A DNA stretch of 51,983 bases from Anaerolineae bacterium (GCA_011174845.1 DUEW01000002.1:1-51983), one strand, 5' to 3'; positions 3,594 to 35,791 are shown, counted from the first letter of the stretch. A program made the numbers and translations. The notes: generated from the letters alone by a model not told the origin.

Positions 3594-3687
3594 GGGAGTG
3601 GTTGGGTCCCGGTGGGCTCCCCGGTCTTCAAAACCGGTGGCGGGCTGCACAGCGGGCCGCGGTGGGTTCGACTCCCATCCACTCCCG
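3594..3687 (+). tRNA. selC: tRNA-Sec (anticodon UCA)
   Basis: 8-bp acceptor stem GGGAGTGG/CCACTCCC, anticodon arm CCGGT-CTTCAAA-ACCGG (TCA at 3628-3630), long variable arm, GGTTCGACTCC T arm, G discriminator, CCA not fully encoded. Confidence 0.95.
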
Positions 3688-7400: not shown

Positions 7401-7988
7401 ATGCCACAACAGCCATCATCTTTTATATTATCAATGACGGACGGACTTCCTGATCGGTTCGATCATCACACCACTCGGTACCTTTCCGCGATGAGAGGAC
7501 AATTCATCGATCAGAAAGCGTATCAAGAGAGGCTCACGAAGGAAGATCCTCTGTTATATGATGTATTTGAGATCAAACTTTCTGAGATGCCTGGTGAGCT
7601 CCAACATGGTGTCTCAGTTATTCATCCCGGGAAGGTGGGGGATGAGTATTTCATGACCAAAGGCCATTTTCATTTGGTGCTCGACACAGCGGAAGTTTAT
7701 TACTGCCTACGTGGGGATGGTGTAATGGTGATGGAAACGCCTGAAGGCGATTGGTCGGTAGAAGAGATGCATCCAGGGACAGTGGTGTATGTTCCCCCTC
7801 GATGGGCTCATAGATCCGTCAATGTTAATCTCGAAAGCGATTTGGTGTTGTTCTTTGTCTACCCTAGTAACGCTGGACACGACTATGGATCGATAGAGCA
7901 ACAAGGTTTTCGAAAGCTCATTCTGGATCGAGATGGTCGCTATGAAATCGTCGATAACCCGAATTGGCTTCCTCCCGATTTGCGATGA
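7401..7988 (+). CDS. Cupin-type glucose-6-phosphate isomerase family protein
   Basis: MTKGHFH, EVYY, YVPPRWAHRSVN, AGHDYG motifs as in archaeal cupin PGIs. Confidence 0.85.
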   Translation: MPQQPSSFILSMTDGLPDRFDHHTTRYLSAMRGQFIDQKAYQERLTKEDPLLYDVFEIKLSEMPGELQHGVSVIHPGKVGDEYFMTKGHFHLVLDTAEVYYCLRGDGVMVMETPEGDWSVEEMHPGTVVYVPPRWAHRSVNVNLESDLVLFFVYPSNAGHDYGSIEQQGFRKLILDRDGRYEIVDNPNWLPPDLR

Positions 7989-8127
7989 GGGAAGATATAG
8001 AGCAGGTAACAAAGGAATGTTCACTTTCTGTTACAGGGACAACATCGTTTTAGACAAAGCTAACACGGGTTGCCGTTCCTCAGTGTTACCATCCAAATTT
8101 AGAATAAAAAAATGAAAGGACATCCTG

Positions 8128-8775
8128 ATGAACAAAGAAGATACCTTGACTAGAATTCGAGAGATAGGCTTGTTGTCGGTGATCCGCGGTCCTTCTCCCG
8201 AACTTACCTTGAAGATGGTCGATGCGCTTGTCGCTGGAGGCGTTTACGGGATTGAGATAACTTACACCACCCCAAACGCACCCGAAGTTGTTAAGGCACT
8301 CGATGAGAAATTCGGCAATCAAATCCTACTTGGTATGGGCACATTGACCAAACCGGAGCATGCGGTGACGGCAAAGGAAGCTGGCGCACTCTTTATCGTC
8401 AGTCCGCATTGTAGCGAAGAACTGGCAAAAGCCATGGTTGAAACGGGATTGGCGGTCATGATAGGTGCTCTCACACCATCGGAGGTGGTCCAAGCTCGAG
8501 AATGGGGGGCTGATGTCGTGAAGGTCTTCCCGGGATCACTTGTCGGTCCGGGATACTTAAAGGCGTTGCGTGGACCGTTTCCTGATATTCCCGTCATGCC
8601 TACAGGTGGGGTGAGTATCGAGAATGTGGCTGATTGGTTTGCCGCGGGTGCGTATGCAGTGGGAGCGGGCAGTGACCTTTGTCCAAGTGCTTGGGCGAAG
8701 GAAGGTCGCTTTGATGAGATTACCGAGCGAGCTAAAACTTTTGTGAAGGAAGTAGAGAAAGCTCGATCTGGGTAG
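8128..8775 (+). CDS. eda: KDPG/KHG aldolase family protein
   Basis: IEIT, GALTPSE, VKVFPG, MPTGGV. Confidence 0.85.
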   Translation: MNKEDTLTRIREIGLLSVIRGPSPELTLKMVDALVAGGVYGIEITYTTPNAPEVVKALDEKFGNQILLGMGTLTKPEHAVTAKEAGALFIVSPHCSEELAKAMVETGLAVMIGALTPSEVVQAREWGADVVKVFPGSLVGPGYLKALRGPFPDIPVMPTGGVSIENVADWFAAGAYAVGAGSDLCPSAWAKEGRFDEITERAKTFVKEVEKARSG

Positions 8776-26471: not shown

Positions 26472-27506
26472 GTGCGTGTATTACATTTAATGGGACCAAG
26501 AGAATTCCAATGGGAGGACGAACCCACTCCTCAACCAGGTCCTGGTGAAGTACGGCTTCAGGTACAGGCAGTGGGGATCTGTGCCTCCGATATCCACACC
26601 TATGCTCATGGACGCATAGGAGATGTCACCCTCGAATCGCCACTCGTTCTGGGACATGAAGCCTCCGCGAGAGTCGATGCACTAGGCCCTGATGTTGAAG
26701 GGTTAATACCAGGACAACTGGTAGCTGTTGACCCGGCCATGCCCTGTAACTCCTGTGAATTTTGTCTGCAGGGTAACCCAAATTTCTGTAAAGCACTCCG
26801 TTTCTTCGGCAACTGGCCTCATGATGGTGCTCTGCGTGAGTTGTTAAACCATCCAGCAGAATTGGTTTATCCAGTCCCCGAGAGTTTCACGAGTATCGAT
26901 ACAGCTATGCTAGAGCCATTGGGTGTAGGGTTGCATGCACTCCAGTTGGGTCACATACACCCTGGTGATCATGTCGCGGTGCATGGGTGTGGCCCGATTG
27001 GATTGCTGGTAATAAAACTTGCCAGGCTTGCTGGCGCGGGGGAGATCATTGCCATCGAACCGATACCACATCGTCGTCAAATGGCAACAGAAGTGGGTGC
27101 AGACATTGTTCTTCCATTGGATAACAACCAAGTCCACGCGGTGAGAGAAATCACCCATGGACGAGGTGTAGATAAGGTGTTTGAGGCTGCCGGTGAGAAT
27201 GATGCAGTTCGAGATGCTGTCGAAGTGTGTAAACCTGGCGGAAGGGTGATTTTAATCGGGATTCCTGCAGAAGATGTGACCAGTTTCAGGGCATCTGCTG
27301 CCCGACACAAGGGCCTGACTATTTTGGTTGTACGCAGGATGAAGCATACCTACCCGCGCGCGATCTCTTTGGTTAAATCAGGTAAGATCGATTTCGGCAA
27401 ATTGGTCACACACCAATTTCCTTTTCAACAGGCAGCCGAAGCTTTTCGTCTGGTAGAATTTCGAGAAGATAAAGTCATTAAGGCGATTGTGAAGGTCTCG
27501 GCGTAG
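26472..27506 (+). CDS. Zn-dependent sorbitol/iditol dehydrogenase-like protein
   Basis: GICASD, LGHE, C..C..C, EPL, GCGPIG, LVTHQF. Confidence 0.9.
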   Translation: MRVLHLMGPREFQWEDEPTPQPGPGEVRLQVQAVGICASDIHTYAHGRIGDVTLESPLVLGHEASARVDALGPDVEGLIPGQLVAVDPAMPCNSCEFCLQGNPNFCKALRFFGNWPHDGALRELLNHPAELVYPVPESFTSIDTAMLEPLGVGLHALQLGHIHPGDHVAVHGCGPIGLLVIKLARLAGAGEIIAIEPIPHRRQMATEVGADIVLPLDNNQVHAVREITHGRGVDKVFEAAGENDAVRDAVEVCKPGGRVILIGIPAEDVTSFRASAARHKGLTILVVRRMKHTYPRAISLVKSGKIDFGKLVTHQFPFQQAAEAFRLVEFREDKVIKAIVKVSA

Positions 27507-27591: not shown

Positions 27592-28737
27592 CTATAACTG
27601 CTTTTCATACAGTCGATGTGTCCTGTAAACCTCTCCACCTAGAAGCTGAATTGAGCGGTTCATCATATCATTGTTCTCGAGAATCCAGCTCATCTCTGCC
27701 CACTCGTACCCCTTTCGAGCGGCGTTCTTGGCGGTCTCGAGATACATCATAGCGTCGACGCCTAACCCCCGATATTCGGGCATCACTCCTAGGGCGAATA
27801 CCCGTACCCATGCGATGTCACGTCGCACCTTCCAATGCCAAACTAATTTCAGCATGGTCAAGATCTCGGGAAAACCAGGTCGAGGATAGGCTTTGTGCAG
27901 AGGTTGGCATAGATCCGGCAGGGACAACGCCACACCGATGACCTCGCCCTCACTTTCTACCATTAACACAAGATCTGGGTCGAGCATCGATTTAAGCTGC
28001 GCTGCCATGTGTTCAATCTCAGGGTCCGTCATGGGTACGAATCCCCAATTACGCTCCCAGGATTTGTTGTAAACACGTTTGAAGCGCTCGACTTCCTGGT
28101 CGAAATCCTTCATATTAATGTTTCGGACGATGAGATTTCGACGCGTTTTTACCTTCTCGACTACGCGCAACAGCTTAGATGGAATATTGTTAATGAAATC
28201 CTCCATCTTCACTTTATATGACCACAAGTCCATGGCCTTCTGGTATCCAGCCGCTTCGACGTAGTCCATATATCGAGGCGGATTGTAGGGCATAAGAACG
28301 CGCGGCACGCCATCAAAACCATCTACTAGCATCCCAACCTCGTCATTCGTTGAGAATTGTGCGGGACCCAAGAGGGAGTCGTGTCCCGCATGTGTGGCAT
28401 ACTCCTCTGCTTTCCTAAGTAGTACCAAGGCTGCCTCTTCATCCTCTAAGACCTCGAAAAAACCGAAGAAACCTGTGTTCACCCCTTGAAATTCGTTGTA
28501 CCGATCGTTGGTGAATGCAGCGATTGTGCCAACAATCTTGGGCCCTCGATGTGCTAAGTAGTATTCAGCAGTCGCGTGTTGAAAAAATGGATTGTGCTCC
28601 GGATCGAGGAACTCAACCCGTTCGGAGATGATGGGCGGTACCCAATAGCGATTCTCGCGGTAGACCTCCCATGGGAAGTGGATGAAATCGATTAAATCAT
28701 CCTGGCTTCGAACTTGAGTAAGTCTTAACTCCGTCAT
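27592..28737 (-). CDS. GNAT-fold protein of the YghO/bacterial ceramide synthase (bCerS)-like family
   Basis: WVPP, NPFF.HA, GFFGFFE, GP..FSTNDEVGMLVDGFD, MPYNP, GV.PEYRGLG, EMSWILENN; GGAGG RBS before ATG 28737. Confidence 0.75.
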   Translation of the reverse strand: MTELRLTQVRSQDDLIDFIHFPWEVYRENRYWVPPIISERVEFLDPEHNPFFQHATAEYYLAHRGPKIVGTIAAFTNDRYNEFQGVNTGFFGFFEVLEDEEAALVLLRKAEEYATHAGHDSLLGPAQFSTNDEVGMLVDGFDGVPRVLMPYNPPRYMDYVEAAGYQKAMDLWSYKVKMEDFINNIPSKLLRVVEKVKTRRNLIVRNINMKDFDQEVERFKRVYNKSWERNWGFVPMTDPEIEHMAAQLKSMLDPDLVLMVESEGEVIGVALSLPDLCQPLHKAYPRPGFPEILTMLKLVWHWKVRRDIAWVRVFALGVMPEYRGLGVDAMMYLETAKNAARKGYEWAEMSWILENNDMMNRSIQLLGGEVYRTHRLYEKQL

Positions 28738-28791
28738 GTGAATCCTCCATACATCTGGCACATGATTATATATCTTGGCAAGGTTCTTTAA

Positions 28792-29772
28792 CTAAAGCAT
28801 CCCTTGTTCCATGTACCAATCATAGGCCTCCTGAGCGGCTTGACGAAATGGGAGCGGTTCTGGTAAATCGAGTTCCTGCTGTGCTTTGGATGTATCGTAA
28901 TAGAGATGATGTCGGCTGAGGCGTAATTGGGTGCTGTTGAAGGGGAGGGTGACCAATGGACGCACCCAATTTATTATCGTCGCGGCTGGCTCGATCAACC
29001 AGCCGGGGATTTTCAACCAAGGCCGGCGTCTGCCAACGATCTCGGTCAGGATGGTGAAGGCTTTGCGATGAGGAAGATTTTCGCCTCCGAGGATGTAACG
29101 TTCACCGGACCGGCCATGACGAGCAGCAGAGAGGTGACCCGTAACTACGTCTGTGACATGAATATAGTTATCACCGCCATCTATCCAGAAAAAACCCCAT
29201 CCCTTGGCAGCTTCAATCACCATCGTTCCACTGATACGGTTTAAGTCGCCTGGACCTAACACGATCGAAGGGTTGAGGATGACAAGCTCTAAACCGCGCT
29301 CTGCGATTTTAAGAGCCTCGATCTCAGCCTGATACTTTGAGTAGCCGTACGTGAACTGATTCGGGGGCAGGTTGAACTTGTGGTCTTCGTTTAATAGTTC
29401 TCCCCGCGTTGGAACTCCCAACGCAGCAGATGAGCTTGTAAGCATGACGCGTTCTACTTGGGCTTCTCTGGCAGTTAGCATTACATTACGAGTGCCTTCG
29501 ATAGCTGTCCGTAATACGAGTTCTGGATAGCGCCAATAATCTGATTGAGCAGCTGTGTGGAACACCCAATCCACGCCCTCGAACGCGGATCGCAGAGTTT
29601 CCGGTTCCAGGATGTCTCCGACGACTCGCTCGAGGGGCAAACCCTCCAATGCTGTGAGTGAGGAAGTTTTCCGATGTAATGCACGCACGGTGTAACCGTG
29701 CGTGACCAAAGCCCGGCATAGAGCCGAACCTATGAAACCGGTCGACCCTGTGACGAGAGCCGTCTTAGTCAA
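28792..29772 (-). CDS. Extended SDR, NAD-dependent epimerase/dehydratase family (HpnA/DFR-like); candidate 3-keto-ceramide or 3-ketosphinganine reductase
   Basis: VTGSTGFIG, TSS, YGYSK, GERYILGGEN; overlaps the spt-like stop codon. Confidence 0.75.
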   Translation of the reverse strand: MTKTALVTGSTGFIGSALCRALVTHGYTVRALHRKTSSLTALEGLPLERVVGDILEPETLRSAFEGVDWVFHTAAQSDYWRYPELVLRTAIEGTRNVMLTAREAQVERVMLTSSSAALGVPTRGELLNEDHKFNLPPNQFTYGYSKYQAEIEALKIAERGLELVILNPSIVLGPGDLNRISGTMVIEAAKGWGFFWIDGGDNYIHVTDVVTGHLSAARHGRSGERYILGGENLPHRKAFTILTEIVGRRRPWLKIPGWLIEPAATIINWVRPLVTLPFNSTQLRLSRHHLYYDTSKAQQELDLPEPLPFRQAAQEAYDWYMEQGML

Positions 29773-30946
29773 TCAATCCCAACTCCTGACCGACTTCGCC
29801 CAAGATATTCAAGGCGCGATCGATTTGCTCGTCGGTGTGAGTGGCCATATAGCTAGTGCGTAGTAAGCATTGGTCTGGGGGAACCGCAGGGTCCACAACC
29901 GCGTTGGTATAAAGACCTGCCTCGAAACACATCTTCCAAGCTATGAATGTCTCTCTCATCCCTCCGATGATGATGGGGATAATGGGTGTAACGCTCGGGC
30001 CGGTGTTGAATCCCATGGCTTTTAGACCAGTTCGCATACGCTCGGTGACTTCCCAAAGACGCTCGCAATGTTCGGGTTCGTTTTCCATGATGTCCAGCGC
30101 AGCAAGCACCGTCGCTACATTGGAGGCTGGCATCGAAGCGCTGAATATCAGCGAGCGAGCGGTGTGTTGGATGTAGTGAAGTGTGTCTCTATCACCCGCG
30201 ATGAACCCTCCTAACGAAGCGAAGGATTTGCTGAAGGTCCCCATGATCAAGTCCACCTGATCGGTGACCCCAAAGTGAGCCGATGTACCGTGCCCATTTC
30301 CCATGACACCAAAGCTGTGTGCATCATCAACCATCAGACGGGCGCTGTATTTCTGGCAGATGGGAATAATTTCGGGCAAGGGTGCTAAGTCACCTCCCAT
30401 GCTATAGACACCATCCACGATCACTAATCGTCCTGCTTTCTCATTGACCTTGCTTAACACACGCTCGAGATGCTCGATATCGTTGTGGGAGAAACGCCGT
30501 ATTTCGCCTAAAGAGAGCATACATCCATCAACGATACTTGCGTGGTCATCCTTATCCGTTACGACCACATCGCCACGTCCAACGATGGAAGAAATCACAC
30601 CCAGGTTGACCTGATAGCCCGTGCTAAATACGAGGGCCACCTCTTTACCCACAAAGGTTGCCAAACGTTCTTCCAACTCCTTGTGGAGAGCAAGGGTGCC
30701 ATTGAGAAAACGAGAGCCTGTACAACTGGTGCCGAAACGTTTGATGGCATCAATGGCCGCTTGTCGAACTCGTGGATCGGTGGTCAACCCGAGATAGTTA
30801 TTGGAGCCGATCATGAGAATTTTACGCCCATCGATGACTACCTCCGTACCCTCCGTGTCTTCAAGCGGTAAAAAATAGGGGTAGAGGCCGGCTTCCTGCA
30901 TCTCTCGTGCTCTAACAAATTGGTCGCACTTCTCGAAGATATCCAT
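29765..30946 (-). CDS. spt: PLP-dependent alpha-oxoamine synthase, serine palmitoyltransferase-like
   Basis: GLYPYF, GSNNYLGLT, GTSCTGSRFLNGT, DHASI, GTFSKSFASLGG (TFSKS rather than the TLGK/TFGK typical of Kbl/BioF). Confidence 0.75.
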   Translation of the reverse strand: MDIFEKCDQFVRAREMQEAGLYPYFLPLEDTEGTEVVIDGRKILMIGSNNYLGLTTDPRVRQAAIDAIKRFGTSCTGSRFLNGTLALHKELEERLATFVGKEVALVFSTGYQVNLGVISSIVGRGDVVVTDKDDHASIVDGCMLSLGEIRRFSHNDIEHLERVLSKVNEKAGRLVIVDGVYSMGGDLAPLPEIIPICQKYSARLMVDDAHSFGVMGNGHGTSAHFGVTDQVDLIMGTFSKSFASLGGFIAGDRDTLHYIQHTARSLIFSASMPASNVATVLAALDIMENEPEHCERLWEVTERMRTGLKAMGFNTGPSVTPIIPIIIGGMRETFIAWKMCFEAGLYTNAVVDPAVPPDQCLLRTSYMATHTDEQIDRALNILGEVGQELGLID

Positions 30947-31461
30947 TTCCATTTCCAATCAGCATTCTGGAGTTCTTACAATGCATAACACCTCGCTCAC
31001 GCCTACGTTTTGCCCCCATCACAAATTGGCACTTCCCGAGGTGGCTTAACTGAGCCATTGATGATTGTACCAAGAAAGGTCCTTAATGCTAATCTCCGTC
31101 TTAGTTAACACCTTCTCCGGTACCGATGGATCGTTGATTGGATCGGGTGCTGAGAAATTCTCAGAAGGCGACATCGATCGGGTCTGACAATTGCGGAGAT
31201 CAATTACATGTTTGCAATGATCCCGATCGCTTGGTTGAAGCTTCTAAACCGGTAATTAGTCTATTAAAAGTTTGTAGAGGCAATTCATGCAGTCTCGCAC
31301 CGGCGTGCCGCCGGTTTTCGCGGCACGGACGGTGAATTGCCCCTACCAAATTAAGGAGCCTATATCGGTTATGTGATGGAATTTTTAATTATACAATTAC
31401 GAGTCTGTGAGAGATTGGTCTCAAGATTGTGATCTCAGCAGATAATGGAAGGGAGAGATCA

Positions 31462-32439
31462 ATGGCGCTACGACAACTTGGATGGACGAACCTTCAACTA
31501 ACGACCATCGGATTGGGGACTTGGGCGCTTGGGGGAGGGGAATGGCGATGGGGATGGGGACCGCAGGATGACCAAGAATCTAGAATCACCATTCAACGAG
31601 CCCTCGATCTTGGGATTAACTGGATCGACACCGCGGCGGTATATGGTCTGGGTCGATCGGAGGAGGTCATCGGGAAAACGCTTCAGGGGATGGTTAAAAA
31701 GCCCGTCATCGCTACCAAGTGCAGCTTGGTGTGGGATGAGGATAGGATGATATCCAACAGCCTTAAGAGGGGGAGTGTTCGACAAGAGGCAGAGGATTCC
31801 TTAAGGAGGCTAGGCGTAGAAGCGATTGACTTGTACCAGATCCATTGGCCAGACCCCGAGCAGGAGATCGAAGAAGGGTGGGGGACAATTGCCGATCTGA
31901 TCAAGGAAGGCAAAATCCGCTACGCCGGCGTATCTAATTTTAATGTCGAGCAGCTCAAACGCATACAGCCCATTCATCGAGTGGCCTCCCTCCAACCGCC
32001 TTACAGCATACTAAGACGGGGGATCGAGGATGAGATTCTCGATTACTGTTCGAATCATGATATCGGAGTGATCGTATACAGCCCCATGCAGAAAGGGATC
32101 TTGACGGACAAGTTCTCGAAGGATTGGGCTCAAAACCTGCCGGATAGCGACCATCGTGCTCGCGATTCGCGATTTCAGGAGCCAGAGCTGAGCGTGAATG
32201 TCGAATTTGTCAAGAGGTTAAGCGAGATGGCCAAGGATAAGGGTAAAACCGTCGCCCAGCTTGCCATCGCTTGGACTCTTCGTCGTCCAGAGGTAACCGC
32301 GGCGATCGTTGGAGCGAGGAAACCACATCAGATCGAAGAAACCGTCCACGCTGGCGAATGGGAGCTCGATAAAAACGAGATCGAGCAGATCGATGAACTG
32401 CTCGAGGCGCGATCCGATGCGCTTGAGAAAGTCAAATAA
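31462..32439 (+). CDS. Aldo/keto reductase
   Basis: IGLGTW, DTAAVYG, ATK, IDLYQIHWP, GVSNF, YSPM. Confidence 0.92.
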   Translation: MALRQLGWTNLQLTTIGLGTWALGGGEWRWGWGPQDDQESRITIQRALDLGINWIDTAAVYGLGRSEEVIGKTLQGMVKKPVIATKCSLVWDEDRMISNSLKRGSVRQEAEDSLRRLGVEAIDLYQIHWPDPEQEIEEGWGTIADLIKEGKIRYAGVSNFNVEQLKRIQPIHRVASLQPPYSILRRGIEDEILDYCSNHDIGVIVYSPMQKGILTDKFSKDWAQNLPDSDHRARDSRFQEPELSVNVEFVKRLSEMAKDKGKTVAQLAIAWTLRRPEVTAAIVGARKPHQIEETVHAGEWELDKNEIEQIDELLEARSDALEKVK

Positions 32440-32625: not shown

Positions 32626-32700
32626 TCGGGGCGGGCTGATTTGAACCGCCGACCTCACGGACCCGAACCGTGCGCTCTAACCGGGCTGAGCCACGCCCCG
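32626..32700 (-). tRNA. tRNA-Pro (anticodon CGG)
   Basis: CGGGGCGTGGCTCAG...CACGG-TTCGGGT-CCGTG...GGTTCAAATC...CGCCCCGA; CCA not encoded. Confidence 0.92.
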
Positions 32701-32740: not shown

Positions 32741-32880
32741 TCTGGATACAATCTTACCGTGCATGCTGAAAAAAGCAACCTAGAATTATGTGAAGCATGA
32801 TCCGTGAGATTCTCCACAACGAACTTTCAGTCGACTCGTTACAATCCTTCGACCACCGATAAAATCTTGGAAGAGAAAAA

Positions 32881-33097
32881 TGTAACCGCACCCTTTAGGG
32901 TGCACAGAGATGCGCAGGCTAAAGCCTGCGGCTACACGTGGGCTTATGGGACGGAGAGTGTTGTAGCCGCACCCTTTAGGGTGCGCAGAGATGCGCAGGA
33001 TAATGCCTGCGGCTACATGTGGGCTCAGTGGACGAGAGTGTTGTAGCCGCACCCTTTGAGGTGCGCAGAGATGCGCAGGTTGAAGCCTGCGGCTACA
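32881..33097. repeat. Array 1 of REP-like double-hairpin elements (3 x 56 bp; 32881-32936, 32962-33017, 33042-33097)
   Basis: Consensus TGTAGCCGCACCCTTTAGGGTGCG-CAGAGATG-CGCAGGCTAAAGCCTGCGGCTACA; similar 24-25 nt linkers. Confidence 0.88.
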
Positions 33098-33209
33098 AGA
33101 CATAGTAATCCTTTAAAGACCTTCAATGGACTCCTCCCCGAAGGTCTCTAATTCGTTGGGAGTTTCTTCTCCAAGGCACCCTCTTTTCGATGGTTGGCCA
33201 TAAAATGAA

Positions 33210-34696: not shown

Positions 34697-35791
34697 ATGC
34701 CGGCGAGCAAGAAAGTGAAAGTGGCAATCATCGGTGTGGGAAATTGTGCGTCGTCTCTCGTCCAGGGAGTCCATTATTATCGGAATGCCAAACCCACAGA
34801 CCATGTGCCCGGGTTGATGCACGTCGATCTAGGCGGTTATCACATTCGAGATATCCAATTTACTGCCGCATTCGATGTGGTTAAGGGCAAAGTGGGATTG
34901 GATCTAAGCGAAGCACTTTTCGCACATCCCAACAACACGATAAAGTTTGCTGACGTCCCTAACCTCGGCATTCCGGTCCATCGCGGCATGACCCACGATG
35001 GGATAGGGAAATATTTGTCCGAGGTGGTAGAGAAGGCTCCAGGACCGACGGATGACATCATTGGCATTCTGAAGGATACCAAAACCGATGTGGTCATTAG
35101 CTTCCTTCCTGTGGGCGCAGAGATGGCGACCAAATGGTATGTTGAGCAAGTGCTGGAAGCGGGATGTGCTTTTGTCAACTGCGTCCCGGTCTTTATCGCC
35201 AGCTCTGAGTATTGGGCGGGTCGATTTCAAGAGCGGGGGCTTCCAATCATCGGCGATGATATCAAGAGTCAGGTCGGCGCCACTATCACCCATAGGGTTC
35301 TCACCTCTCTATTCAACGATCGTGGTGTACACCTCGATCGCACTTACCAGCTTAATTTTGGTGGCAATATGGACTTTTTCAATATGCTCGAGCGTGAGCG
35401 ATTGCAATCGAAGAAGATATCCAAGACGGGCGCAGTGACCAGCTTGATTCCTTACACAATGAGTATGGAAGATATTCATGTTGGTCCTAGCGACTATGTC
35501 CCCTGGCTGACAGATCGTAAATGGTGCTACATCCGTATGGAGGGCACGACATTTGGGGATGTGCCGCTCAATCTTGAACTTAAATTAGAGGTGTGGGATT
35601 CCCCAAATTCAGCCGGTGTGGTGATCGATGCCGTCCGCTGTGCGAAAATAGCATTGAACCGTAAGTTGGCCGGACCCATTGTGGCACCTTCTGCGTATTT
35701 CATGAAAACACCACCAAAGCAATTTACCGATGATGTGGCTCGACAAATGACCGAGGATTTCATCATCGCAGAAGTATCATCGGACGATTGA
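34697..35791 (+). CDS. ino1: myo-Inositol-1(3)-phosphate synthase
   Basis: [46 protein letters not shown]. Confidence 0.93.

Follow-up and report, generated by a model that had tools for sequence, protein, structure and literature searches.

A compact Spt–reductase–acyltransferase operon as a candidate dihydroceramide pathway in an Anaerolineae bacterium

Three tightly spaced genes in the genome of an Anaerolineae bacterium raise the question of whether this organism carries a minimal pathway for a ceramide-type lipid and, if so, which enzyme would perform each step. The genes occupy positions 27592-30946 of a 51,983-nt stretch of DNA (GCA_011174845.1, DUEW01000002.1:1-51983), hereafter called the window, which is contig C112 of the metagenome-assembled genome (MAG) G000 (3.13 Mb in 233 contigs, 80.8% complete). 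All three lie on the minus strand and encode, in the direction of transcription, an Spt-like alpha-oxoamine synthase, an extended short-chain dehydrogenase/reductase (SDR) resembling HpnA, and a tandem-GNAT N-acyltransferase of the YghO/bCerS family. We put the probability that together they form an operon for making a lipid of the dihydroceramide type at ca. 65%. A minimal ceramide pathway in a probable Chloroflexota organism had been proposed in a preliminary description of this DNA, and the comparative analysis now supports that proposal through the grouping of the synthase with Spt, the YghO-family membership of the GNAT protein and the linkage of the genes. The assignment to Chloroflexota was also borne out, as the named relatives of the window proteins came from Anaerolineales, Anaerolineaceae or Chloroflexota MAGs. 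Genomes, contigs and loci are denoted below by the prefixes G, C and L.

Gene organisation and proposed pathway

The open reading frame (ORF) of the synthase extended over 29765-30958 (397 aa from a TTG at 30958), and its likely start was the ATG at 30946, which gives a protein of 393 aa. This ATG begins the sequence 'MDIFEK', where the alignments with homologues also begin, and it is the end that had originally been assigned to the cluster. The SDR gene (28792-29772, 326 aa) started with a TTG within the last codons of the synthase gene, and the resulting overlap of 8 nt (29765-29772) appears to be a translational-coupling junction. The GNAT ORF spanned 27592-28761 (389 aa, open from a GTG at 28761); its likely start was the ATG at 28737, which is preceded at 6 nt by GGAGG and gives a protein of 381 aa, the length at which 5007 database relatives peak. 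The gap between the SDR stop codon and this ATG was 54 nt. A hairpin resembling an intrinsic terminator, with a 10-bp stem and a run of seven T residues (27546-27521, minus strand), lay 46 nt past the GNAT stop codon, and a terminator scan of the region gave zero such sites between the three genes. The hairpin is a consensus match only, and since the region contains three terminator-like sites where 3.2 would be expected from shuffled sequences, its weight lies in its position and not in statistics. The overlap and the single terminator after the last gene confirmed, at the level of sequence, the predicted single transcription unit, in agreement with the initial view of three tightly linked genes sharing a terminator.

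We infer the substrates, the products and the keto-reductase role of the HpnA-like SDR from family membership and linkage, and the pathway would then run as follows. The Spt-like enzyme, which would depend on pyridoxal 5'-phosphate (PLP), would form 3-ketodihydrosphingosine by condensation of L-serine and a long-chain acyl thioester. For want of a linked dedicated acyl carrier protein (ACP) or ligase, this thioester is probably acyl-CoA; neither an ACP nor an acyl-ACP synthetase gene was present among the 15 neighbouring ORFs (19435-39776), which extends the earlier remark that none is adjacent. The HpnA-like extended SDR would use NAD(P)H to reduce the keto group at C3, and the YghO/bCerS-type tandem-GNAT enzyme would N-acylate the amine from acyl-CoA to yield dihydroceramide. 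The sequence does not tell the relative order of reduction and N-acylation. In Caulobacter, acylation has been argued to come first and CerR is periplasmic (PMC11087976), and in Bacteroides the reductase acts on the free base (PMC9278070). Compartments give no hint to the order of steps in the window, because none of the three proteins has a signal-like N-terminus or a hydrophobic 19-mer above 1.6; all three look soluble and cytoplasmic.

An HpnA-like SDR as the candidate reductase

The SDR matched Pfam Epimerase with 119 bits, and its top curated matches were HpnA (TIGR03466, 279.6 bits, cut-off 367.65) and the sterol demethylase SDR family SdmB (NF052578, 184.4 bits), both over the full length and both below the cut-offs. 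The best match in the PDB was 3wj7 (199.7 bits). The protein carries the motifs TGSTGFIG (residue 8) and YGYSK (residue 142), and the catalytic Tyr142 and Lys146 of YxxxK were invariant in an alignment of seven orthologues. Only the N-terminal 177 aa aligned with the SDR at the CerR position of the Escherichia coli cluster (29% identity), and a FastTree phylogeny placed a long branch with a support of 1.000 between the HpnA-like and CerR-like groups. The KdsR model NF049977 of the classical 3-ketodihydrosphingosine reductases (Tsc10/FVT1/BT_0972), which are SDRs of ca. 270-300 aa, was not among the best 25 of the 45 NCBIfam matches of the 326-aa extended SDR; the classical SDR adjacent to Spt in G010 itself scored 119 bits with this model (cut-off 400). 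These results support an HpnA-like extended SDR that is not CerR-like, which is the substitution that the preliminary description had suggested when it assigned an HpnA/DFR-like extended SDR to the place of CerR.

TIGR03466 is named 'hopanoid-associated sugar epimerase', and a hopanoid link of the SDR was considered and rejected. At its 80.8% completeness, the MAG yielded no full squalene-hopene cyclase; the sole signal was a partial hit of 37.8 bits in a frame of 345 aa, which makes a hopanoid role unlikely. The SDR also scores under both family cut-offs, and its genomic link is with Spt instead of hopanoid genes. Proteobacterial HpnA-type genes were 36-40% identical to it.

A second HpnA-like SDR was seen in G000 on contig C79 (L107, 3207-4187; 37% identity, 217 bits with HpnA). 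It lies 9 kb from a BioF/Kbl gene and not beside Spt, and the recruited reductase may derive from it.

Spt loci were examined in 35 Chloroflexota genomes, of which G001-G004 belong to the same genus as G000. An SDR abutted Spt in 26 of the 35 loci and was HpnA-like in 9, CerR-like in 10 and classical in 7; the CerR-like count includes G046, in which a GNAT and a glycosyltransferase gene intervene. The HpnA-like form, 55-79% identical to that of the window in the other genomes, was located directly 3' of Spt in G000, G002, G008, G013, G015, G017, G018, G021 and G023. A CerR-like extended SDR held the Spt-adjacent position in G001, G003, G012, G020 and G024, with 25-34% full-length identity to the SDR of the E. 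coli cluster, and was found one or two genes from Spt in G046, G160, G232, G257, G330 and G337. A classical SDR of ca. 285 aa was located directly upstream of Spt in G006, G010, G016, G025, G039, G150 and G213. None of the three types was present within the stretch fetched for nine loci (G034, G038, G186, G159, G070, G272, G280, G297 and G321). HpnA-like and CerR-like SDRs substitute for each other even among congeners, because G001 and G003 share the genus of the window genome. The junction itself, GGGAGTTGGGAyTGATTGAnTGA, was nearly identical in 10 of the 10 loci printed, five with an HpnA-like and five with a CerR-like SDR; it comprises the end of Spt ('...ELGLID*'), GGGAG and the TTG start inside the final Spt codons. 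These observations show that the reductase type has been swapped at a conserved Spt junction. An ORF cluster ('c45') that had appeared to be a conserved Spt neighbour was rejected, as it is an antisense frame of the SDR.

Contigs were also scanned with the alignment of the seven HpnA-like SDRs. Three of the 80 loci obtained contained Spt: L123, from an Anaerolineaceae MAG, with the order Spt-SDR, and L126 and L133, from named Anaerolineae MAGs, with GNAT, HpnA-like SDR and Spt on one strand and GNAT proteins 44-45% identical to that of the window. The other 77 were Chloroflexota paralogues and proteobacterial HpnA-type genes with no Spt nearby.

One of these loci speaks against the assigned role of the SDR. 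L126 (3992-8162, Anaerolineales MAG) carries on one strand a classical SDR, a YghO-like GNAT gene, the HpnA-like SDR and Spt, and its classical SDR shares 44% identity with the one beside Spt in G010. Since both types occur in the same apparent operon, the HpnA-like enzyme might perform a step other than 3-keto reduction, such as a head-group change or a second lipid oxidoreduction, with the keto step left to an unlinked SDR. The characterised Bacteroides reductase BT_0972 is likewise a classical SDR (ca. 31 kDa, PMC9278070), and neither HpnA nor SdmB, the nearest curated families, is a family of keto-sphingoid reductases. However, the identical position, with the same 8-nt junction, is taken by a CerR-like SDR in sister species, the HpnA-like enzyme is the sole SDR of the L133 cluster, and the MAG gave no orthologue of the classical Spt-adjacent SDR (best identity 34%, at 80.8% completeness). 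Together with the missing cyclase, these observations make a different step for the HpnA-like SDR rather unlikely, and 3-keto reduction is retained as its candidate function.

Further genes were observed next to Spt. In G023 and G024, a gene resembling acyl-ACP thioesterases (4HBT_2, Acyl-ACP_TE) lay 3' of Spt-SDR (L032, 6039-6914; L036, 7914-8795). A protein of ca. 400 aa without a Pfam or NCBIfam match was encoded 3' of the HpnA-like SDR in G017 (L034, 6921-8129), and two tandem copies were present in G021 (L035, 4679-5998 and 5770-6807), a genome of 79% completeness in which no YghO-family gene was found; this protein could be an alternative acyltransferase. In distant Chloroflexota, a GT28-type glycosyltransferase resembling monogalactosyldiacylglycerol (MGDG) synthase was encoded either immediately 3' of Spt or with Spt on one side and a CerR-like SDR on the other (L051, 9518-10657; L058, 8034-9167; L059, 5681-6886; L060, 5889-7019; L064, 5753-6880; L057, 6100-7233; L066, 8424-9557). 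The family scan covered the ORFs of L051, L057-L060 and L066. The best NCBIfam match was diglucosyl-diacylglycerol synthase with 151 bits, below the cut-off. Loci combining Spt with this glycosyltransferase are probably glycosyl-ceramide clusters.

The GNAT protein and its linkage to Spt

BLASTP aligned the GNAT protein with YghO of E. coli K-12 at 32% identity over 375 of 389 residues (E 2e-64). This confirmed by sequence comparison that it is a full-length relative of the YghO family, as had been proposed. The window protein was the sole family member found in the MAG and also the top match of E. coli YghO in this genome. Pfam gave a weak C-terminal GNAT match only. NCBIfam gave no match, which says nothing about the protein, because E. 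coli YghO was also unmatched. Sequence and profile searches of the PDB returned generic motif-A GNAT matches only, and an Atlas search returned only clusters named 'GNAT family', from Chloroflexota, Actinomycetota and Bacteroidota. An AlphaFold2 model built from 41 sequences had a tandem-GNAT fold (pLDDT 93.4, pTM 0.90). Its best Foldseek matches were the tandem-GNAT structures 2wpw, 7q3a and 5kf1 and the mycothiol synthase MshD, with TM-scores of 0.55-0.62; no close structural relative was thus found (TM-score at most 0.62). The predicted fold is that of a GNAT-fold acyl-CoA N-acyltransferase.

In E. coli K-12, which lacks the spt cluster, yghO adjoins an IS5, and in E. coli strain 124 it is arranged head-to-head with genes for a fatty acyl-AMP ligase, an NAD-dependent epimerase/dehydratase, an ACP and Spt, followed by lptG/lptF paralogues. 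PMC9386255 lists 'aca', which corresponds to CC_1154 and to yghO (ECD_02850), among the genes 'required for dihydroceramide biosynthesis', and CC_1154 is labelled cerS, for ceramide synthase (CerS), in PMC11324152. It weakens the functional assignment that the tie of the window protein to the Caulobacter ceramide synthase is an indirect one, via YghO (PMC9386255). In a quick maximum-likelihood tree of 63 YghO-family members, a long branch (SH-aLRT 100) divided the family into halves. The window clade, the members of G046 and G330 and E. coli YghO fell into one half, and most paralogues of ca. 30% identity, including the one near Spt in G038 and G186, fell into the other.

The association of this gene with Spt was assessed at two scales. 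The order Spt-SDR-GNAT was conserved in G000, G001, G002 and G003, and hence in three of the four congeners of the window genome. In the fourth, G004, a congener assembled as a single contig, Spt was cut to its first 188 codons (87% identity; L048, G004:C1:580000-597000, 7745-8434); this remnant adjoins the conserved aldo-keto reductase gene, and neither the SDR of that locus nor a GNAT orthologue was found. In more distant Chloroflexota, the gene orders were Spt-GNAT-CerR-like SDR in G330 and Spt-GNAT-MGDG-synthase-like glycosyltransferase-CerR-like SDR in G046, and a YghO-family member was one gene away from Spt in G038 and G186. G330 and G046, like L126 and L133, show that distant Chloroflexota also combine the three components, in gene orders that differ from that of the window. 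Across 301 Chloroflexota genomes, an evenly drawn sample of the phylum in which Spt orthologues were called at 53% identity or above, a YghO-family gene was present in 28 of 29 Spt-bearing genomes vs 25 of 272 Spt-less ones. The first count includes the unpublished genome G265 and is 27 of 28 without it. No significance test was applied to this difference, because related genomes are not independent. The occurrence of YghO-like GNAT genes in Spt-less genomes also means that family membership alone does not prove ceramide synthesis.

Among 40 relatives, 14 had orthologues of both Spt and GNAT, 3 had GNAT only, 6 had Spt only, 1 had the truncated Spt and 16 had neither. Several of these patterns tell against a strict partnership of the two genes. 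In all 11 genomes from outside the genus with orthologues of both, Spt and GNAT lie on different contigs, and the GNAT orthologues there are 57-68% identical to the window protein. Six relatives have Spt and no GNAT orthologue, and G005, G007 and G014, which are 86-93% complete, have the GNAT orthologue and no Spt orthologue. At 9 of the 13 GNAT loci outside the genus, genes for NfeD, an SPFH/Band-7 protein and a small GNAT protein follow directly on the same strand, and an Lgt-like gene lies upstream (L017, L018, L020, L022-L026 and L030, from G023, G024, G013, G014, G020, G034, G007, G016 and G005, respectively). Furthermore, six genomes of genus g87 (99-100% complete) carry a GNAT relative of 42-43% identity, and the three of them that were searched for Spt had a BioF/Kbl-like synthase only. 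The link between GNAT and Spt is thus weaker than the operon suggests.

On these grounds, Spt and the SDR could make a free sphingoid base, with the GNAT protein outside the pathway as a general N-acyltransferase of an envelope or membrane-microdomain neighbourhood (Lgt, NfeD-SPFH) whose gene happened to come to rest next to Spt-SDR in this genus. Such a role would fit the absence of Spt from 12 of the 12 stretches fetched around GNAT orthologues outside the genus, the NfeD-SPFH neighbourhood, the Spt-less genomes just named and the varying third gene after Spt-SDR, which is the thioesterase gene in G023 and G024 and the gene for the ca. 400-aa protein in G017 and G021 and is missing from G013 and G008. 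We nevertheless consider it unlikely. A YghO-family gene accompanies Spt in at least four further lineages (G046; G330; G038 and G186, at a distance of one gene; L126 and L133), E. coli also has one in its spt cluster, and the family is strongly skewed towards Spt-bearing genomes in the phylum sample. No second family member was found in the MAG, and G004 is without an intact Spt, the SDR and GNAT together. Ceramide synthesis with GNAT as the N-acyltransferase therefore remains the preferred reading.

In a further reading, the ancestral home of the ceramide-synthase-like GNAT gene in family f1 would be an operon with NfeD and SPFH/Band-7 (stomatin/flotillin-type) genes, as at 9 of the 13 GNAT loci outside the genus, and ceramide made by Spt, the HpnA-like reductase and this GNAT protein would be the lipid partner of SPFH microdomains. 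We regard this as speculative and quite unlikely. If true, it would provide a bacterial parallel to sphingolipid rafts, and sphingoid keto reductases would comprise a third class, the HpnA-like SDR, recruited independently of the other two.

In G007, the GNAT orthologue forms the C-terminal end of an ORF of 814 aa (L025, 5339-7783; the open frame was reported as 1027 aa), the N-terminal 430 residues of which have no Pfam match. This long ORF may be a fusion or reflect a missing stop codon.

The synthase

The synthase contains the motifs GSRFLNGT (residue 81), GTFSKS (residue 240), DDAHS and HASI, which align with those of the serine palmitoyltransferase (SPT) of Sphingobacterium multivorum, GSRFLNGT being identical in the two. 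We take Lys244 in GTFSKS to be the PLP lysine and the His/Asp motifs DDAHS and HASI to be PLP contacts. The top NCBIfam model was NF047600 (Spt, CFB type) with 539.8 bits, followed by a BioF/Kbl subfamily model (388 bits), BioF (374 bits) and Kbl (346 bits). In the PDB, S. multivorum SPT (8guh/3a2b) ranked first with 440 bits and further SPT chains scored 315 and 305 bits, vs at most 281 bits for the non-SPT chains (a BioF/Kbl enzyme). The sole other oxoamine synthase in the genome, on contig C79, was 40% identical to the window enzyme and passed curated cut-offs, with 581 bits for BioF/Kbl (cut-off 535) and 541 bits for Kbl. Identity to the window synthase was bimodal in the 40 relatives: full-length matches of 62-95% occurred in 20 genomes, and the other full-length matches reached at most 46%.

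A quick maximum-likelihood tree was built from 52 rows, with tblastn hits of fewer than 340 aligned residues dropped. One clade (SH-aLRT 99) united the Spt of E. coli strain 124 with every Spt-like row from Chloroflexota, and BioF and Kbl of E. coli and two Anaerolineales paralogue groups fell outside it. The use of quick methods for both this tree and the GNAT tree, and the long branches of E. coli Spt and YghO in them, reduce the weight of the trees. The motifs, the ranking of the models and the tree support an Spt-type synthase distinct from BioF/Kbl; the scores place it nearer to characterised Spt than to BioF, Kbl, ALAS, CqsA or cysteate acyltransferase. This agrees with the earlier identification of an SPT-type alpha-oxoamine synthase from GSRFLNGT and GTFSKS, and the phylogenetic check that had been proposed against Spt, BioF and Kbl grouped the enzyme with Spt and not with BioF/Kbl.

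A third Anaerolineales group of oxoamine synthases was noted (L110-L114 and L119, from G040, G027, G036, G001, G021 and G010), 40-46% identical to the window Spt. In the quick tree it was the sister of the Spt clade (support 90) and distinct from the BioF/Kbl-like group.

The assignment to Spt leaves the amino acid substrate to be considered. The score of the synthase fell below the equivalog cut-offs of all three Spt models (NF047600, 539.8 vs 640; NF047599, 425.4 vs 500; NF047603, 351.6 vs 670), which counts against a plain serine enzyme. Alanine or glycine would lead to 1-deoxy bases and cysteate to capnine-type sulfonolipids; in either case an analogue of ceramide would be made instead of a true sphingolipid. 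Cysteate-C-fatty acyltransferase chains were recognisable relatives in the PDB search (259 bits), and Ding et al. (PMC11334938) report 1-deoxyceramides in a similar habitat. However, the cysteate enzyme scored ca. 180 bits behind the SPT chains, the GSRFLNGT stretch is the same in S. multivorum SPT, and no cysteate synthase or sulfur-related gene was present in the 15 neighbouring ORFs. A substrate other than serine is thus distinctly improbable, and L-serine is kept in the proposed pathway. That the synthase is a housekeeping BioF/Kbl enzyme in a cluster without a lipid role is almost certainly wrong: the fold and the PLP motifs are common to all alpha-oxoamine synthases and the BioF/Kbl models do score 346-388 bits, but the separate C79 gene passes the BioF/Kbl cut-offs, the window enzyme lies outside the BioF/Kbl clades, and no biotin or threonine-dehydrogenase gene occurs among the same 15 ORFs.

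Comparison with known systems and significance

Among the known systems closest to the operon is the Caulobacter and E. coli B-type cluster of spt, acpR, aasR, cerR and cerS, the last also known as bCerS, CC_1154 or yghO (Padilla-Gomez et al. 2022, PMC9386255; Olea-Ozuna et al. 2024, PMC11324152; Dhakephalkar et al. 2024, PMC11087976). The window shares with it a synthase of the Spt type, 39% identical to that of E. coli, a YghO tandem-GNAT protein, a clustered extended SDR and the same predicted chemistry. It differs in lacking a linked ACP or acyl-ACP synthetase gene and nearby lptF/G paralogues and in having an SDR that is not CerR-like and, unlike the periplasmic CerR of Caulobacter (PMC11087976), has no signal-like N-terminus.

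The closest characterised Spt type is that of Bacteroidota, to which S. multivorum SPT (3A2B/8GUH) and BT_0870 belong, together with the reductase KDSR BT_0972 and the ceramide synthase BF9343_4218. The absence of a linked ACP or ligase is common to both systems, whereas the Bacteroidota genes are unclustered (PMC11334938, PMC9278070) and those of the window are clustered. By its description as a classical SDR of ca. 31 kDa (PMC9278070), BT_0972 differs from the extended HpnA-like SDR of the window.

Within the phylum, Spt-like proteins have been reported in 218 Chloroflexota MAGs (Ding et al. 2024, PMC11334938), so that the earlier characterisation of this as an unexpected lineage for ceramide synthesis does not hold. 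Ceramides and glycosyl-ceramides correlated with Anaerolineae in the same work, a result repeated in 2025 (PMC12619533). The Black Sea Chloroflexota MAGs with Spt-like genes described in these two papers belong to the same phylum and class as the window organism and are also predicted sphingolipid producers. Unlike the present account, the accessible text of the two papers gives Spt counts and lipid correlations and leaves the Chloroflexota reductase and acyltransferase unnamed. The scheme of Spt, bCerS and a reductase is already known, and the window would represent a different reductase type within it. Reports of an HpnA-like SDR in a sphingolipid cluster, or of three SDR types that replace one another at the Spt junction, were not found in a literature search that excluded most subscription journals.

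Bacterial sphingolipids are thought to be widespread, and for anoxic waters and sediments Chloroflexota have been put forward as major producers. The locus and its relatives provide candidates for the N-acyltransferase, of the YghO type, and for the reductase, in three interchangeable types (HpnA-like, CerR-like and classical) at the Spt junction. If the role of the HpnA-like SDR is confirmed, homology searches relying on CerR or KDSR only would overlook real sphingolipid producers; BLASTP with CerR queries at a cut-off of 1e-30, for instance, would probably fail to recover this SDR. The three small, apparently soluble proteins would also suit heterologous ceramide production.

Flanking features

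A promoter-like site (TTAGCA-17-TACAAT with TG; 31064-31092, minus strand) was located ca. 105 nt upstream of the synthase ORF. It is a consensus match only, and with seven such sites in the region vs 4.5 expected, the promoter evidence is weak. Rfam gave no match in the 470-nt leader, and its matches in the whole window were two tRNAs only. The operon is flanked by genes for a zinc-dependent alcohol dehydrogenase (26472-27506) and an aldo-keto reductase (31429-32439), both on the opposite strand.

A gene for myo-inositol-1-phosphate synthase (34697-35791, plus strand) lies 3.7 kb from the operon and is kept in this neighbourhood in G001 and G002. It may be connected with inositol-containing head groups, but there is no CDP-alcohol transferase gene beside it. 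A tRNA-Sec gene (3594-3686, plus strand; Rfam 76.3 bits) suggests that the organism uses selenoproteins. Between a tRNA gene (32626-32700) and the gene for a GAF histidine kinase, three tandem units of ca. 80 nt were found at 32881-33114, each internally palindromic and 73-89% identical, which account for the odd repetitive ORFs at 32786-33103.

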